DNA from: Candidatus Bathyarchaeota archaeon
GTDB taxonomy: Archaea; Thermoproteota; Bathyarchaeia; TCS64
NCBI GenBank assembly: GCA_963771885.1
Contig: CAVYVF010000002.1
Coordinates: 128,001 to 192,000 of the forward strand
Length of the DNA: 64,000 bases
Direction: 5' to 3'
Shown here: positions 40,857-47,842 of the stretch, in pieces
Position numbering within the stretch: position 1 is the stretch's first letter
Layout: each line of letters opens with the position of its first letter
Position numbers and translations under genes: made by a program
Notes under the pieces: generated by a model
Told to the model about the DNA's origin: nothing
The model's input: only the letters and a program-made list of their open reading frames with translations
The model's database searches: none

Positions 40857-40943
40857 AGTGTATTACTTATGCAACTCATCTAAATAACCAATTTCTATCA
40901 AGACGCTCCTTAAAAGTGGCGTAAAAACACCACGCGTGCGCAA

Positions 40944-41084
40944 CTAGTTCAAGGGTCTAACAGACCGTGGAGGGTAATACTTCTTTGTCCCTCGAATCGT
41001 CTTCAACGCACCAAGAATTTGATCGTCCCGCTTTTCAGATTCTGTTAATGGTCTATACCCTTTCTTCGCATCTTTCATCTTCAT
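40944..41084 (-). CDS. Small basic ORF (46 aa), absent from the ORF track
   Basis: MKMKDAKKGYRPLTESEKRDDQILGALKTIRGTKKYYPPRSVRPLN; GGAG upstream. Confidence 0.4.
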   Translation of the reverse strand: MKMKDAKKGYRPLTESEKRDDQILGALKTIRGTKKYYPPRSVRPLN

Positions 41085-41149
41085 CAATTAGTCAACTCCA
41101 TTAATCTTTTTTTGAGGGAAATTTAGAACCTCTACACGCACCCGCGCAT

Positions 41150-41481
41150 TTGGGGGGTGCCCAGGCGAGATTACCTCGCTGAACCCCGCTTTGGCGTTGT
41201 CAACTGGGGAGTGCAGAAATCTCAACCAGCCAAAGCCAGTCAAGCTCCTTTACAGTCCACTCCTCAAGGCTCCGCGGCTTTCAGGTCTTACACTGCTTCG
41301 ACCTTTCGTCCGCTCCCACCTGGACAAATGCAATCAATGCCGCCAGGATATAAGCGCATTCCATTGTTCTCAGCTATCAACTAATGATTTTTCAGCCTAT
41401 AATAATGCCCCTACATGCGCTGTATCAAGCAAATCTCAATCGAGGTCTAAATACGTCAAAATATTGTATCCCTTAGCACGA
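41150..41481 (-). ncRNA. Candidate large structured ncRNA, copy 1
   Basis: Homologous to 44466-44796 with indels; nested stems whose mismatches become G-U pairs on the minus strand. Confidence 0.55.
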
Positions 41482-41532
41482 TATCTTATTGACGCGTTTA
41501 AGAATAATGAAATTCATAGAGCAGTAAAGACG

Positions 41533-41859
41533 TTAGTCCTTTGACTTCCTCTTAGCTTTCCCAATCTCTTCCTGAGCCTTCCCCTCGAGTTGCTCAATCT
41601 TACCCTTAAGCTGCTCAGTCTTATTATCAGTAATTTTCCCAATTTCCTCACGAATCTGGCCCTTGATCTTCTTTCCTCTACCCTCAAATTCAGCATCGCT
41701 CATATCGGTAACTTTACCCACATTCTCTTGAACAGTCCCCTCCGCCTGCTCAAGTTTGCCCTTGAGCTGCTCCGTCTTATTATCCGTGATTTTGCCTACT
41801 TCTTCACGGATCTGGCCCTTGAGTTTCTTCGCTCTACCTTCAACTTCGTCTTTGTTCAT
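41533..41859 (-). CDS. CsbD-family stress protein with two tandem CsbD units
   Basis: Two copies of EG+xK+xKGQIREExGKITDNKTEQLKGKxEQxEG. Confidence 0.88.
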   Translation of the reverse strand: MNKDEVEGRAKKLKGQIREEVGKITDNKTEQLKGKLEQAEGTVQENVGKVTDMSDAEFEGRGKKIKGQIREEIGKITDNKTEQLKGKIEQLEGKAQEEIGKAKRKSKD

Positions 41860-42008
41860 GTTTGCAGGATAAGAAGCGCGGTTTATAAATGAAGGCAGAT
41901 AGAAGAGGACCCGCAATTTTGACTATGTTGAATTTTTTATATTTAATCACGCATAGATTTTTTTAATTATTTTGGGGTAAGGGTTTATCTTTATGATTTT
42001 CATAAAAC

Positions 42009-42074
42009 TATGCTAAAGGAACGCCATACTCCCTTAGCCTCCGTAGTAGGGGCCGAAGAGGCCCCGAACCCTCA
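42009..42074 (-). ncRNA. Candidate two-hairpin small RNA, copy 1
   Basis: 56 nt identical to 46735-46790; hairpins GGGGCC-UCUUC-GGCCCC and GCUAAGGGAGU-AUGGC-GUUCCUUUAGC. Confidence 0.5.
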
Positions 42075-42169
42075 ATATCGCTCACAAATCGAATGCGATT
42101 ATATAATTAATATTATCATTAGTAAAACGTGTATCTAGGTAAAGTAACTATTAAGCAGATAATAATGCT

Positions 42170-42355
42170 CTAATGTCCGATATCTGCCTCATCTTGCTTG
42201 GCTGTTTCTACATAGCAATCCATGCAAGCCTCCCCAAGTGTGGGGATATAGGCTATAAAAGTCGTCAATTTTTTATCACATTTGATGCATCTCCGCACCA
42301 AACTAGGGCTTGTAATATTTATCATCCAAAATTCCTCACTACTGCATCCACACAC
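42170..42355 (-). CDS. Small Cys-rich (zinc-finger-like) protein
   Basis: CIKC...CMDC; paralog at 46889-47074 keeps the reading frame. Confidence 0.65.
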   Translation of the reverse strand: MCGCSSEEFWMINITSPSLVRRCIKCDKKLTTFIAYIPTLGEACMDCYVETAKQDEADIGH

Positions 42356-42373
42356 TATTCAGCCCGAAAGCAA

Positions 42374-42532
42374 TCATCCGGTAGCAATATTTCTACCCTG
42401 AATGAATCGGATGAGCACGACTATAACCGCGATGACCAGCAATGCATGGATCAAACTTCCGCCGATGTTACCAATCAGCCCAAGCACCCAGAGAACCACG
42501 AGGATCGCTACAATAGTCCATACAATATCCAT
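42374..42532 (-). CDS. lmo0937/DUF5670-family small membrane protein (52 aa)
   Basis: MDIVWTIVAILVVLWVLGLIGNIGGSLIHALLVIAVIVVLIRFIQGRNIATG; below the ORF-track cutoff. Confidence 0.85.
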   Translation of the reverse strand: MDIVWTIVAILVVLWVLGLIGNIGGSLIHALLVIAVIVVLIRFIQGRNIATG

Positions 42533-42537
42533 TCAAC

Positions 42538-42729
42538 TCAACTCCTGTGAGCGCGCTCGAGTTTATCCTTCTCCTTCTCGATACCTTTCTTAAGGTTATG
42601 AGCGCCCTTACCCAAGGCTTTTCCCACTTCCTCAGCCTTATCCTCGATGGCATCGCCTGCCTTTTTTGCGCCTTTAGCTAGGTCTTTTCCCGCTTTCTCT
42701 AACTTTTTCTCAATTGTTTTTGGTGACAA
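42538..42729 (-). CDS. LEA/hydrophilin-like small protein
   Basis: Amphipathic K/E/A/G repeats (LEKAGKDLAKGAKKAGDAIEDKAEEVGK); TTG start. Confidence 0.7.
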   Translation of the reverse strand: MSPKTIEKKLEKAGKDLAKGAKKAGDAIEDKAEEVGKALGKGAHNLKKGIEKEKDKLERAHRS

Positions 42730-43143
42730 GTAACATCTAATTTGATAGGGGAAGCATTCAATATAAACCGGCGCGCGCGCTTCATCGCTCACGCACACAG
42801 TTACTCCGGCGAATAATCACGATGAGTTGCGCGGGTGGCTCGATCTGCATAATTATTCAGTAACCACATTTCTTCCCTGAATGAGCCTAATGCACGCGCG
42901 CTCTTCTGGTTGGCGCTTTGGGTGACGAGACTCTAACTGTCAAGATGCGCTTGTTCTGAGTTTAGGGCCAAGGCAGCGTGTGCGCGATTTATTCAAAAGC
43001 CTTATTGTTCCGTAGTTTAGCTATGAAGAAACCGCGTGCGCACTATACGCCTCTCCACGGAAAGGGGGAGGTAAGTAGATGAATCGCATGCAACGGTGTC
43101 AGTTTTAAATTTATATGTTGGAAATGAACTATTATAGGTTAAC

Positions 43144-44361
43144 TTGTACCTTGGATCGACTTCTTCAATCAAAGTTCTACTTGTCGACGACGAACCCGCC
43201 GTTATGGACATAACAAAACTGAATCTCGAAGCAGCCGACACATCGTTCAAGATAACCCTCGCCCCCACGCCAAAAGACGCACTCACCCTCCTCAAAGGAG
43301 AGTCCTTCGACTGCATAGTCTCCGACTACATCATGCCGGAGATGAATGGCATCGAACTCTGCACCGAGATTAAGAAGACCCGGAAAATCCCGTTCTTAAT
43401 ATACACCGCTAGGGGAAGCGAAGAAGTCGCCTCCGCCGCCTTCTCAGCGGGAGTCGACGACTATGTGAGGAAGGAACCGAATCTCGCCCATTTTGCCTTA
43501 CTTGCGCGAAGGATCAGACAGTCAGTAGAGAAGAATAAGGTTGAGGAGTTCAAAGCCGCGGCCAACAAGGAGCTAGCCGAAACAAATGTTGGACTGAAAG
43601 AATCCTACGCAGAACTAGCAAAGGCAAGAACGGCTGCCCAAGAACACGCGGACAAGCTTGAGGGGATAGTTGAGAATGGGAGAGCCAAGCTGCGGGTTAG
43701 TGAGGAGAGGCTGCGTAAGTTGCAGCAGATGGATACGATTAGCAGGATTGGGGCAGTCGTGGCGCATGATCTCCGTGGTCCGCTTGTGACTATTAGTCAG
43801 GCATCGGAGATGGCCCGGGTGAGGCAGGAGCTATCTGAGAAGATGCTTGAGTTGATCGCTGAGAACGCGAGGAGGTCCCTGGAGATGATTGAGGAGTTCA
43901 GGGAGGGCACAAGGGAGGTGAAGGCGGAGAAGAGAAGCGCGGATTTATCATCTCTAGTTAAGAAGACAGTGGAGGAGATGACTAGGCCGGGTAACGTCTC
44001 ACTCGACCTTAACCTGGGGGAGGGTTTGGATGCTGTTTCGCTTGACCCCGGGTTGATTCGTAGAGTGTTTGTGAATCTTGTCCAGAACGGTGTGGAGGCG
44101 ATGCCTGAGGGTGGAAGGCTTACCGTTTCGGCTAAGCGTAATGACGGCGATGCTGTGATTGAGGTCTGTGATACGGGTGTGGGCATCAAGGATGAGGATC
44201 AGAAGCACATCTTTGAGCCTTTATTCACTAGGAAGAAGGGTGGCTTGGGGCTCGGGCTGTACTTTGTTCAGATGGCTGTGTTTGCGCATGGTGGTGTTGT
44301 TAACTTTGAGTCAGGACCCGCTAAAGGGACAACTTTCAGGGTAGTATTGCCTATTGCCTAA
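43144..44361 (+). CDS. Hybrid histidine kinase (REC-coiled coil-HisKA-HATPase)
   Basis: LVDDE, VSDYIMP, AHDLRGPL, NLVQNGVEA, DTGVGI, GLGLGL. Confidence 0.9.
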   Translation: MYLGSTSSIKVLLVDDEPAVMDITKLNLEAADTSFKITLAPTPKDALTLLKGESFDCIVSDYIMPEMNGIELCTEIKKTRKIPFLIYTARGSEEVASAAFSAGVDDYVRKEPNLAHFALLARRIRQSVEKNKVEEFKAAANKELAETNVGLKESYAELAKARTAAQEHADKLEGIVENGRAKLRVSEERLRKLQQMDTISRIGAVVAHDLRGPLVTISQASEMARVRQELSEKMLELIAENARRSLEMIEEFREGTREVKAEKRSADLSSLVKKTVEEMTRPGNVSLDLNLGEGLDAVSLDPGLIRRVFVNLVQNGVEAMPEGGRLTVSAKRNDGDAVIEVCDTGVGIKDEDQKHIFEPLFTRKKGGLGLGLYFVQMAVFAHGGVVNFESGPAKGTTFRVVLPIA

Positions 44362-44465
44362 ACAACTCCTAATAGATTAGTATCGGCTAGAAGTGAGAAT
44401 AAAAATAACCGGTGCGCACAGCTCCTATCCTATTGAAGAGAAGGAGAAACACTTCACGCTCGCTC

Positions 44466-44796
44466 TTGGGGGGTGCCCAGGGGAGATTACCGCGCTGACC
44501 CCGCTTTGGCGTGATCAGCTGGGGAATGTAGGTGTCTCAGCCAGCCAAAGCCAGCCAAGCTCCTTCGCAGCCCACTCCTCACGGCTCTGCGGCTTTCAGG
44601 TCTTCCACTACTTGGACCTTTCATCCGCTCCCACCTGGGCAAAAGCAACTACATCCGCCGGGGTATAAGCGCGTTCCATTGTACTCAGCTATCAATTAGT
44701 GGTTTCTCAGCCTCCAATAGCGCCCACATATGCGCTGAATCAGCTAAATCAATGTCGAGGCCTGAAAGGGCCGATATATTGTGTCTTTTTGCGCGA
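44466..44796 (-). ncRNA. Candidate large structured ncRNA, copy 2
   Basis: TGCCCAGG/CCTGGGCA closing stem; GCTGA/TCAGC, AGGTC/GACCT and AAAGCC/GGCTTT stems; homologous to 41150-41481. Confidence 0.55.
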
Positions 44797-44844
44797 ACAC
44801 CTACTTGAAAACAGGATCGTCACGAAACCTGAATAGGTAATATT

Positions 44845-45057
44845 CTACTCCTCATCCTCTCCGCGTTCCTCCTCTTCTTTTTCCTCGGGATTCTCTACAG
44901 AATATTCCTCCTCCTTCTCCCACTCCTCCCGATCCTCTCTCTCATCCTCCTGACTTTCCTCCTCTTCTTTCTCTATTTCCTCTTCCTCGTGTTCTTTCTC
45001 GCGCTCCTCTTCATGTTCAGCCTCACGGGTCTCCCGCTCGCTTTCAGAGTAGTTCAT
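44845..45057 (-). CDS. Extremely acidic small protein (38 of 70 residues Glu)
   Basis: ATG preceded by GGAG and an upstream TTTAAAA. Confidence 0.55.
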   Translation of the reverse strand: MNYSESERETREAEHEEEREKEHEEEEIEKEEEESQEDEREDREEWEKEEEYSVENPEEKEEEERGEDEE

Positions 45058-46459: not shown

Positions 46460-46630
46460 CTATTCTTTCGCCTTCCGCTTAATTTTCCCAACGGTCTCCT
46501 GGACATCGCCTTGGACCTGCTCGATCTTACCCTTGACCTGCTCAGTCTTATTATCCGTGATTTTGCCTACTTCTTCACGGATCTGACCCTTGAGTTTCTT
46601 CGCCTTACCTTCAACTTCGTCTTTGCTCAT
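46460..46630 (-). CDS. CsbD-family stress protein (single unit)
   Basis: MSKDEVEGKAKKLKGQIREEVGKITDN. Confidence 0.88.
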   Translation of the reverse strand: MSKDEVEGKAKKLKGQIREEVGKITDNKTEQVKGKIEQVQGDVQETVGKIKRKAKE

Positions 46631-46734
46631 GTTTACCGGATGAGAAGCGCTGTTAATAAATGAGGACAGGATCGAAGGATGCACGTATTCGGCAATAGGT
46701 AAGGGTTTATCTATAGGGGTTTTTAATTTCCTTT

Positions 46735-46799
46735 TATGCTAAAGGAACGCCATACTCCCTTAGCCTCCGTAGTAGGGGCCGAAGAGGCCCGAACACTCA
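46735..46799 (-). ncRNA. Candidate two-hairpin small RNA, copy 2
   Basis: See copy 1; a TATA-like element lies about 25-30 nt upstream on the minus strand in both copies. Confidence 0.5.
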
Positions 46800-46888
46800 C
46801 AAGAGCTAAAAAATCGAATGTGATTATAAAATTTATGCTAATATTAATAAAACGTGGACCTGCGTGTGGTTACTGAGCAGATCATAAT

Positions 46889-47074
46889 TTAATGTCGAAT
46901 GTTTGCCTCATCTTGCCTGGCTGTTTCTACATAACAATCCATGCAGGCCTCCCCTAACGAGGGGATATAGGCTATAAAAGTGGTTAATTTTCTATCACAT
47001 TTTACGCATCTCGGCACCAAGCTCGGACTTGTTGTATTTATCATTCCAAATTCCCCTATATCGCATCCACACAC
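46889..47074 (-). CDS. Small Cys-rich (zinc-finger-like) protein, paralog
   Basis: CVKC...CMDC. Confidence 0.65.
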   Translation of the reverse strand: MCGCDIGEFGMINTTSPSLVPRCVKCDRKLTTFIAYIPSLGEACMDCYVETARQDEANIRH

Positions 47075-47092
47075 TACTCAGCTTATTGTAAA

Positions 47093-47251
47093 CTATCCGG
47101 TGGTGATGTTTCTACCCTGAATTAATCGGATGAGTACGACGATAACCGCGATCACTAGCAATGCGTGGATCAAGCTTCCACCGATATTACCAAGCAGCCC
47201 AAGCACCCAGAGAACCACGAGGATCACTACAATAGTCCATATTATGTCCAT
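47093..47251 (-). CDS. lmo0937/DUF5670-family small membrane protein
   Basis: MDIIWTIVVILVVLWVLGLLGNIGGSLIHALLVIAVIVVLIRLIQGRNITTG. Confidence 0.85.
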   Translation of the reverse strand: MDIIWTIVVILVVLWVLGLLGNIGGSLIHALLVIAVIVVLIRLIQGRNITTG

Positions 47252-47256
47252 TCAAC

Positions 47257-47448
47257 TCAACCCCTGTGAGCGCGTTCGAGTTTATCCTTCTCTTTCTCGA
47301 TACCCTTCTTGAGGTTATGAGCGCCTTTACTCACGGCTTTTCCTACTTCTTCAGCCTTATCCTCTATGGTGTCGCCTGCTTTTTTAGCGCCTTTAGCTAA
47401 GTCTTTTCCCGCCTTCTCTAACTTTTTCTCAATGGTTTTTGGTGACAA
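47257..47448 (-). CDS. LEA/hydrophilin-like small protein, paralog
   Basis: Near-identical protein to 42538-42729. Confidence 0.7.
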   Translation of the reverse strand: MSPKTIEKKLEKAGKDLAKGAKKAGDTIEDKAEEVGKAVSKGAHNLKKGIEKEKDKLERAHRG

Positions 47449-47842
47449 GAAACATTCAATATGATCGAGGAAGCATTGAATATAAACTGGAATCTTTGCG
47501 TCTAGAAGCTTTATCGCGTCTCTCACAAAAAGATCAATTAGACGAGGTGGCCGCTTTAGGAAGGTCATCCTCACCCAGATTCAACTATAAGGATTTCAAT
47601 AAATTCGAACATGTGTTTTTTCACTCATCGTAATCATCATATGCCGTTGCTCTGAAGCTTGTGCATTGATGAGCGAGCGGCTTGGTCTGCATCATTATTC
47701 AGATACAATACTTATTCTCCGAATGAGCCTAATGCACGCGACTCATGGTTGATTGATAAATATCGCTGTTAACAAAGTAAAGAATGTAAGTACACCGTAG
47801 ATATCTAATAAATAGCAGGGTTCCTTACCTCCAACGAGTTAA

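Follow-up and report, generated by a model that had tools for sequence, protein, structure and literature searches.

What are the two similar sequences that lie at positions 41150-41481 and 44466-44796 of a 64,000-nucleotide (nt) stretch of a Candidatus Bathyarchaeota genome (contig CAVYVF010000002.1, positions 128,001 to 192,000; the whole stretch is the window below)? The original prediction, made from this DNA alone, took them for two end-to-end copies of a new archaeal structured noncoding RNA, set among unlike genes and transcribed from the minus strand. Comparison with relatives bears out much of this: the two sequences align end to end (80% identity, expect value [E] 5e-83); gene comparison around both confirms that their flanks differ; the minus strand is the RNA strand, with covariation supporting selection for RNA structure; and the RNA is absent from Rfam. 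The window elements are two of five genomic copies of a gene for a tightly folded RNA of about 175 nt, and this conserved core is very probably a functional RNA gene. We further propose, with a probability of roughly 0.6, that it belongs to a family of conserved linear pseudoknotted RNAs, here called type I, which were permuted from a splice-closed RNA (type II) and which likely bind protein.

The element was thought to be a single structured RNA of about 330 nt, and this part of the original prediction fails. Alignment of 25 loci, from which the boundaries were set, splits the element into a conserved 3′ core and a variable 5′ part of about 155 nt: median pairwise identity over these loci falls from 82% in the core to 59% in the 5′ part and to 31-37% in the flanks outside, and the two window copies are identical at 151 of 173 core positions and 114 of 156 positions of the 5′ part. 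Folding the whole ~360 nt gives z-scores of only -1.0 and -0.31 for the two copies, and folding the ~175-nt core gives -2.0 and -1.7. The core occupies 41152..41325 on the minus strand in copy 1 (174 nt; covariance model R1, E 8e-30) and 44468..44640, also minus, in copy 2 (173 nt; R1, E 6e-32), both of a subfamily that we call the long form and both delimited by alignment and covariation. The helix AGCGC/GCGCU formerly assigned to a 5′ RNA domain (41326..41481 and 44641..44796, minus strand) forms all five pairs in only 2 of the 25 loci, with 77 of 125 cells paired. We infer that this 5′ part is promoter DNA copied along with one subfamily: it is co-duplicated with the long form, contains no conserved helix, and is unrelated to the sequences upstream of the other paralogues.

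The core folds into a terminal helix P1 and two arms, P2/P2a, whose loop has 12 nt, and P3-P4-P5, which may include a P6; in addition, a 5-bp pseudoknot joins the P2a loop to the five bases following the 5′ strand of P4 (on the minus strand, 41292..41296 with 41252-41256 in copy 1, and 44607..44611 with 44567-44571 in copy 2). Among 38 distinct sequences, scored against a structure drawn from copy 2, 93.3% of cells are paired and 25 of 60 pairs show double changes, a result reached by 0 of 500 shuffles, and slid controls pair 35-39%; among 59 divergent members, aligned by fitting to the model, the figures are 91.1% of cells and 27 of 38 pairs. The pseudoknot is paired in every cell of the 38 sequences, and its sequence varies freely, with covariation in the divergent members. 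Although it was part of no model, 46 of the 59 divergent members form all 5 of its pairs, compared with 30 on average and at most 36 in 1000 permutations; for each loop, this test took the best 5-mer. The tip of the P5 hairpin (41228..41237 in copy 1 and 44543..44552 in copy 2, minus strand) is invariant at nine of its ten bases in 39 of 39 sequences; at its third loop base, 98 type I RNAs carry U (55), A (36), or G (7). The genes range from 140 to 215 nt; three broken members (L124 at G014:C219:366-487, L023, and L067) include one lacking the P4-P5 arm, one cut after P4, and one lacking the 5′ part. Of the helices that had been drawn for the two copies, three hold across homologues, namely the closing helix and the hairpins AGGUC/GACCU and, at the end, GCUGA/UCAGC; AAAGCC/GGCUUU does not survive as a conserved helix, its halves belonging to P2/P3 and to the P5 tip, respectively.

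Conservation of these loci might instead reflect a small plus-strand protein (41157-41384 and 44532-44699), given that an open frame of about 55 codons is common to both copies. We regard this as most implausible: the frame has no Pfam match; each antisense frame contains a stop in 26-37 of 39 homologues; the sense frames contain one in 65-80 of 98; and lengths are evenly spread modulo 3. The short open reading frame (ORF), for which the original prediction had raised the alternative of conserved coding, is thus broken by stops in most homologues.

The 5′ part ends with a TATA box (41346..41353 in copy 1, 28 to 21 bases ahead of the predicted start; 44661..44668 in copy 2; minus strand), and the G that opens the terminal helix sits 28 bases on. 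Transcription would start at this G, G41325 in copy 1 as judged from TATA spacing and, by prediction, G44640 in copy 2. Three sequencing runs of the same study placed 0 contigs on 40900-44900, which counts neither for nor against transcription. A stretch resembling a B recognition element lies immediately 5′ of the copy 1 TATA box. The arrangement recurs across the whole family, positions -27 to -24 being 90-100% A/T across 82 loci, and 68 loci carry a palindromic TTG-N11-CAA box at about -55 to -39 (41364..41380 in copy 1 and 44679..44695 in copy 2, minus strand), which is likely a transcription-factor site common to the family promoters. A wider regulon of protein genes under this box found no support, as the composite of box and TATA matched the large contigs 18 times, within the range of 10-26 matches in five column-shuffled controls, with no enrichment.

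The five copies in this genome are the two in the window and those at C2:72674-72823, C23:967550-967689, and C23:512740-512951. Relatives were sought by BLAST and with three covariance models, R1 to R3, as the original prediction had proposed, and the search returned homologues with strong covariation. BLAST detects type I in 12 of 17 genomes of the genus and in 0 of 23 others; R1 extends this to 16 of these 17 genomes and to 3 of the family's 7 other genera; with R2, 50 of 70 family genomes have between 1 and 6 copies, whereas none was detected in 8 other genomes of the order or in 115 genomes of other families in the class; and R3 finds no genome with type I among 150 across the phylum. The model searches assess no more than 20-87 candidates in each genome and can therefore miss weak members. 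One weak R3 match (L214 at G048:C12:139394-139517, E 0.008) has the terminal helix, a U-run, and a shortened P2 arm, and is possibly a third variant or a diverged type I RNA in a genus otherwise without matches; another, in G051, was dismissed as chance.

Two further weak R3 matches, in genomes G027 and G094 of two other Bathyarchaeia families (E 0.44 and 0.026), belong to a second kind of RNA, type II. These two are of type I size and have the same terminal helix, a P2a-like hairpin with its pseudoknot partner, a TATA box, and a U-run. By BLAST with E up to 0.01, one type II RNA matches 55 of 401 Bathyarchaeia genomes, a few of them, with E close to the cut-off, likely owing to chance. A pattern scanned against all GTDB species gave 69 matches, among which the type II profile scores 55 of 55 archaeal-labelled and 1 of 14 bacterial-labelled sequences; a contig of a Bacteroidales metagenome-assembled genome (L414) that holds a full type II RNA is likely a misbinned archaeal contig. 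Covariation is seen in 35 of 44 predicted pairs. Two or three profile matches occur in 19 of the 55 archaeal RNAs (13 by a stricter pattern), and we read these as tandem modules, one to three per RNA, inside one terminal helix. An Rfam search of two type II loci returned chance matches only, and on 7 other loci with the same terminal cassette only a tRNA rose above threshold.

The ends of type II set it apart. A bulge-helix-bulge, a 4-bp helix that joins the 5′ and 3′ ends and carries two 3-nt bulges, lies in register with the terminal helix in 18 of 19 RNAs by a relaxed definition and in 15 of 19 by a strict one, whereas the strict motif appears in 2 of 59 short and 1 of 39 long type I members, in non-homologous registers; GCUC on the 3′ strand of the splice motif occurs only with 5′ strands starting in G (7 of 7). 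Under the rule that cuts fall after the second base of each bulge, 81 cassette RNAs, chosen by a pattern that contains the splice motif, would yield circles of 105-110 nt (42 RNAs), 124-141 nt (13), 192-208 nt (25), and 289 nt (1), with the predicted junction GGCUUAG|GCUU in 60 of the 81. Elsewhere, in more families of Bathyarchaeia and in f36, a family of another class of the phylum, the same cassette encloses other inner folds. Readings of the cassette as a kink-turn or a yybP-like loop were set aside, the bulge-helix-bulge fitting better, and a loose terminal-helix pattern, with 120 mostly bacterial chance matches, was dropped whole. The two types are mutually exclusive: type II is found in 0 of 17, 0 of 32, 0 of 5, 0 of 1, and 0 of 1 genomes of the five genera with type I, and a search of the present genome found none. 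Two splicing-endonuclease proteins are encoded in this genome.

Comparison of the two types suggests a circular permutation. The predicted type II junction GGCUUAG|GCU equals the invariant hairpin tip midway in type I, and the remaining motifs come in a rotated arrangement: the type I profile places its 5′ segment at about 50-130 of type II and its 3′ segment at about 20-48, and a scan over rotations peaks at offsets of 18-33. The bulge A of type II corresponds to the third loop base of the type I tip, and variation of that base, A in only 36 of 98, would follow if splicing no longer constrained it in type I. Tandem type II RNAs differ from type I, in which a single rotated module without the splice motif is encoded by 1-6 separate genes. 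We therefore consider it probable that type I is a circularly permuted relative of type II; in form it looks like a pre-ligated, linear, splicing-independent, multicopy descendant. The junction within the type I gene would be accounted for by copying of the spliced circle; head-to-tail gene duplication followed by deletion of the inner ends could also yield it.

For splicing of this kind there is a precedent. The signal recognition particle (SRP) RNA of Thermoproteus is permuted, its ends form a bulge-helix-bulge, ligation by the tRNA splicing machinery restores a hairpin tip, and a TATA box lies about 26 nt before the start (PMC4731332). Type II is built likewise, with bulge-helix-bulge ends and a tip restored by predicted ligation; the differences are that our family has no Rfam SRP match and coexists with a normal SRP RNA gene elsewhere in the genome, that the direction is reversed, type I encoding the junction without a splice motif, and that it is multicopy.

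Several observations weigh against the proposal that the family was permuted from a splice-closed RNA and binds protein: i) the structure scored in the 38 sequences was drawn from copy 2, which favours it, the alignment of the 59 divergent members was fitted to the model, and related sequences in the covariation counts are not independent; ii) both window copies lack the U-run found 3′ of most family members, and copy 1, whose core identity to its best relatives (87%) is below that of copy 2 (91%), may for that reason be decaying; iii) the rotation scan scores poorly (20 bits at best, with a median of 7.8 at the peak) and most native type II sequences have no match to the type I segments, so that the case for homology depends chiefly on short motifs, on the pseudoknot topology, and on the terminal helix common to both types; iv) because the selecting pattern contains the splice motif, the central helix present in 81 of 81 cassette RNAs and the junction consensus are partly built in; v) this 92%-complete genome has no reverse transcriptase (PF00078), which leaves the route from circle to gene hypothetical; and vi) protein binding is arrived at by elimination.

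The proposed course of events is as follows. In ancestral type II, the tRNA splicing endonuclease would have cut the bulge-helix-bulge and ligation would have created the tip GGCUUAG|GCU. The type I gene would have arisen already containing this junction, opened at a different loop and closed by the former terminal helix; since the gene already includes the junction, its RNA would need no splicing. The folded module with its invariant tip may then serve as a protein-binding surface, its dose raised by two or three tandem modules in type II or by 1-6 separate genes in type I, and a factor binding TTG-N11-CAA would co-regulate all copies. A protein-binding role with dose set by copy number is reasonably likely, favoured because the RNA is free-standing, shows no apparent guide-like variable strand, has kept its tip after splicing was lost, and has been multiplied as modules or genes.

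The genomic distribution bears on a different view, namely that the element is a selfish, non-autonomous mobile element, similar to a miniature inverted-repeat transposable element (MITE) or a short interspersed nuclear element or else a retro-copied circle, whose structure serves its own spread. The long-form subfamily, with 0-4 copies per genome at mostly unrelated sites, would suit such an element, as would the location of both window copies in a mosaic island of low GC content (41-48%) and the splice junction inside the gene, which suggests passage through RNA. We nevertheless consider it quite unlikely: the paralogues at C2:72674 and C23:967550 are syntenic across the genus, with neighbours kept; promoter spacing, which retro-copies would lose, is kept in every copy; the genome has no reverse transcriptase; and viral contigs searched with two patterns gave 0 matches. 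Terminal inverted repeats are absent, as the original prediction stated, and 23 long-form loci show neither these nor target-site duplications of consistent length; unlike the ends of a MITE, their longest flank repeats are 5-12 nt and differ between loci. A TnpB-like gene lies beside only 1 of the 23 (it ends 358 nt upstream), and none was seen at the others, ORFs being judged by eye.

Neighbouring genes also speak to whether the RNA could be a cis-acting leader, a riboswitch or attenuator of the gene downstream. Some loci do have a gene on the same strand 50-320 nt downstream, for example an AlaX or SPFH gene, and yet many downstream genes are convergent, including that of copy 2 at 103 nt, as would be expected of a free-standing RNA; most members are followed by a U-run, and the downstream genes have no common function. 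A leader role thus appears very unlikely. In many genomes of the genus, the most conserved paralogue, at C2:72674 (L064:2672-4052), has a free-standing AlaX-like tRNA-editing gene nearby, as does one type I member of another genus. The hydrophilin-like neighbours that the original prediction described are present at the two window copies only (CsbD and a Glu-rich ORF), neighbours in other genomes varying widely; the stress association argued from them is left unsupported because neighbouring genes are not conserved.

Might the RNA itself be catalytic, or a free-standing sensor of a ligand or metal, with the invariant junction bases and pseudoknot as active site or pocket? A compact pseudoknotted fold with invariant unpaired purines would be in keeping with this, and the tandem modules resemble tandem aptamers. 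This too is unlikely, given that 20 short type I loci match no Rfam ribozyme or riboswitch even at E 10, that there is no expression platform or consistent downstream gene, and that the pseudoknot sequence is freely variable. More generally, the original failure to recognise any known RNA is upheld by Rfam 15, with 0 matches at the gathering threshold in the window and chance matches only at E up to 10 for the element region and the 20 short loci. The sole genome matches of archaeal SRP RNA (RF01857, an RNA of about 300 nt with Alu and S domains) and archaeal RNase P RNA (RF00373) lie elsewhere, at C23:4201-4512 and C23:455651-455945, and R3 matches neither locus; ARAGORN finds 0 tRNA or tmRNA genes in the window; no PF00078 match that would point to a retron noncoding RNA occurs in the genome; self-cleaving ribozymes give no Rfam match; nor do riboswitches, including yybP-ykoY, whose L1 loop the cassette recalls, the downstream genes being unrelated and often convergent. 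SAM-I, the hepatitis delta virus-like and hammerhead ribozymes, group II intron domain V, the selenocysteine insertion sequence (SECIS), and the rRNA GTPase centre were also compared and rejected, topology or Rfam score not matching.

The neighbourhood of type II suggests a narrower version of our proposal, in which the RNA is the specific partner (inhibitor, scaffold, or guide) of one protein, in the manner of a type III antitoxin. Type II is usually head-to-head with a gene for a protein of about 215 amino acids (aa), and by pattern an RNA with the splice motif lies just upstream of this gene at 10 of 10 loci in family f36, 4 of 5 in f13, 2 of 2 in f6, 1 of 2 in f19, and 1 of 3 in f11. The protein has a confident predicted fold (predicted local distance difference test score 91), invariant acidic and lysine residues, and top PDB matches that are all PD-(D/E)XK nucleases (best E 1.4e-3, none reaching 0.001; atlas score 0.86), with no match in Pfam or NCBIfam; its gene is kept in 63 of 70 genomes of the window's family and lies at C23:747189-747812 in the present one. 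Cassette RNAs with different inner folds stand beside it at L465-L479 and L508 (f36), L468 and L469 (f19), L476 and L480 (f6), and L474 (f11). In the window's own family, however, 30 loci of the gene have no type I RNA within 1.5 kb and at most one weak 43-nt type II match, and in the present genome neither type lies within 1.5 kb of it; type II occurs away from the gene in families f4 and f1-g4; the gene lacks a detectable cassette in f32, f53, f46, f45, f55, f42, and f9, and in f44 and f41 shows chance-level matches only (loose-motif background, 91 of 690 windows); and no variable guide segment is apparent in the RNA. A dedicated partnership with this protein is therefore rather doubtful.

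Among known systems, type III antitoxin RNAs such as ToxI place tandem pseudoknot modules beside a nuclease-fold gene, as type II does. Type II differs in being head-to-head rather than in one operon upstream of a ToxN/AbiQ/CptN/TenpN toxin, in its modules of about 95 nt, in the single-copy, widespread protein, which has no Pfam or NCBIfam match, and in having no Rfam match, and the window copies, like type I in general, are far from the nuclease-fold gene. CsrB/RsmXYZ and 6S are multicopy small RNAs that titrate proteins; our family resembles them in its free-standing genes, several paralogues, shared upstream regulator box, and repeated binding modules, and differs in having no repeated GGA loops or 6S rod, a pseudoknotted fold, and no Rfam match. 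The omega RNAs of IS200/IS605 elements are archaeal structured RNAs of similar size with circular forms, found at the ends of tnpB or iscB genes (PMC12558985); the present family does not sit at such ends, its own ends are paired, and it is served by a promoter of its own. A search of the literature, with limited coverage of subscription journals, found no paper on structured RNAs of Bathyarchaeia. A preprint (10.64898/2026.10.21.760802) does not mention Bathyarchaeia in its main text; its clusters may include the present family. As far as these searches reach, the biogenesis route has precedent, and the RNA class, the module, and the permuted multicopy form do not.

The surroundings of the two copies have features of their own. 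Positions 40000-62000 form the low-GC island (41-48% versus 48-61%), a mosaic of stress-type and signalling genes that are scattered in relatives; it is not syntenic in the 5 relatives searched, where no orthologous empty site was definable, and no integrase or transposase was recognised by eye among the ORFs from 47.5 kb on. A block of small genes is duplicated at 41553-42898 and 46480-47740 (74-89% identity; CsbD-like, DUF5670, a zinc-finger-like ORF, and a Lys-rich ORF) and contains a 56-nt stretch with two hairpins that is 100% identical between copies (42009-42064 and 46735-46790) and may be a further small RNA or a regulatory element. The region 40944-41137, immediately downstream of copy 1, comprises a 47-codon ORF and the sequence upstream of it; it is repeated at multiple sites in relatives, of which two are linked to a long-form RNA and at least 4 are not, and the ORF has no Pfam match. 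At 42887-42980, an intergenic stretch of about 80-90 nt matches several places in three relatives at 76-82% and is possibly another repeated element.

To our knowledge, uncultured archaea have yielded few classes of structured RNA, and in sediments Bathyarchaeia rank among the most abundant archaea. The family described here is built on a covarying pseudoknotted module, present one to three times within a single RNA or distributed over as many as six genes. Type II and type I would form a natural before-and-after pair for the circular permutation of an RNA gene: the conserved tip is predicted to depend on splicing in one form and is already present in the gene of the other, which opens the origin of permuted RNA genes to testing. 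The comparison also names a candidate RNA partner for a widespread archaeal protein to which no function has been assigned. A tentative and more speculative extension is that, in Bathyarchaeia and at least one other class of Thermoproteota, a circular RNA made by tRNA splicing resides in a particle with the PD-(D/E)XK-fold protein, and that in one family the circle was copied into DNA, reopened, and expanded as co-regulated genes. If a circle was indeed copied back into DNA, the type I gene would record its own RNA ligation junction.

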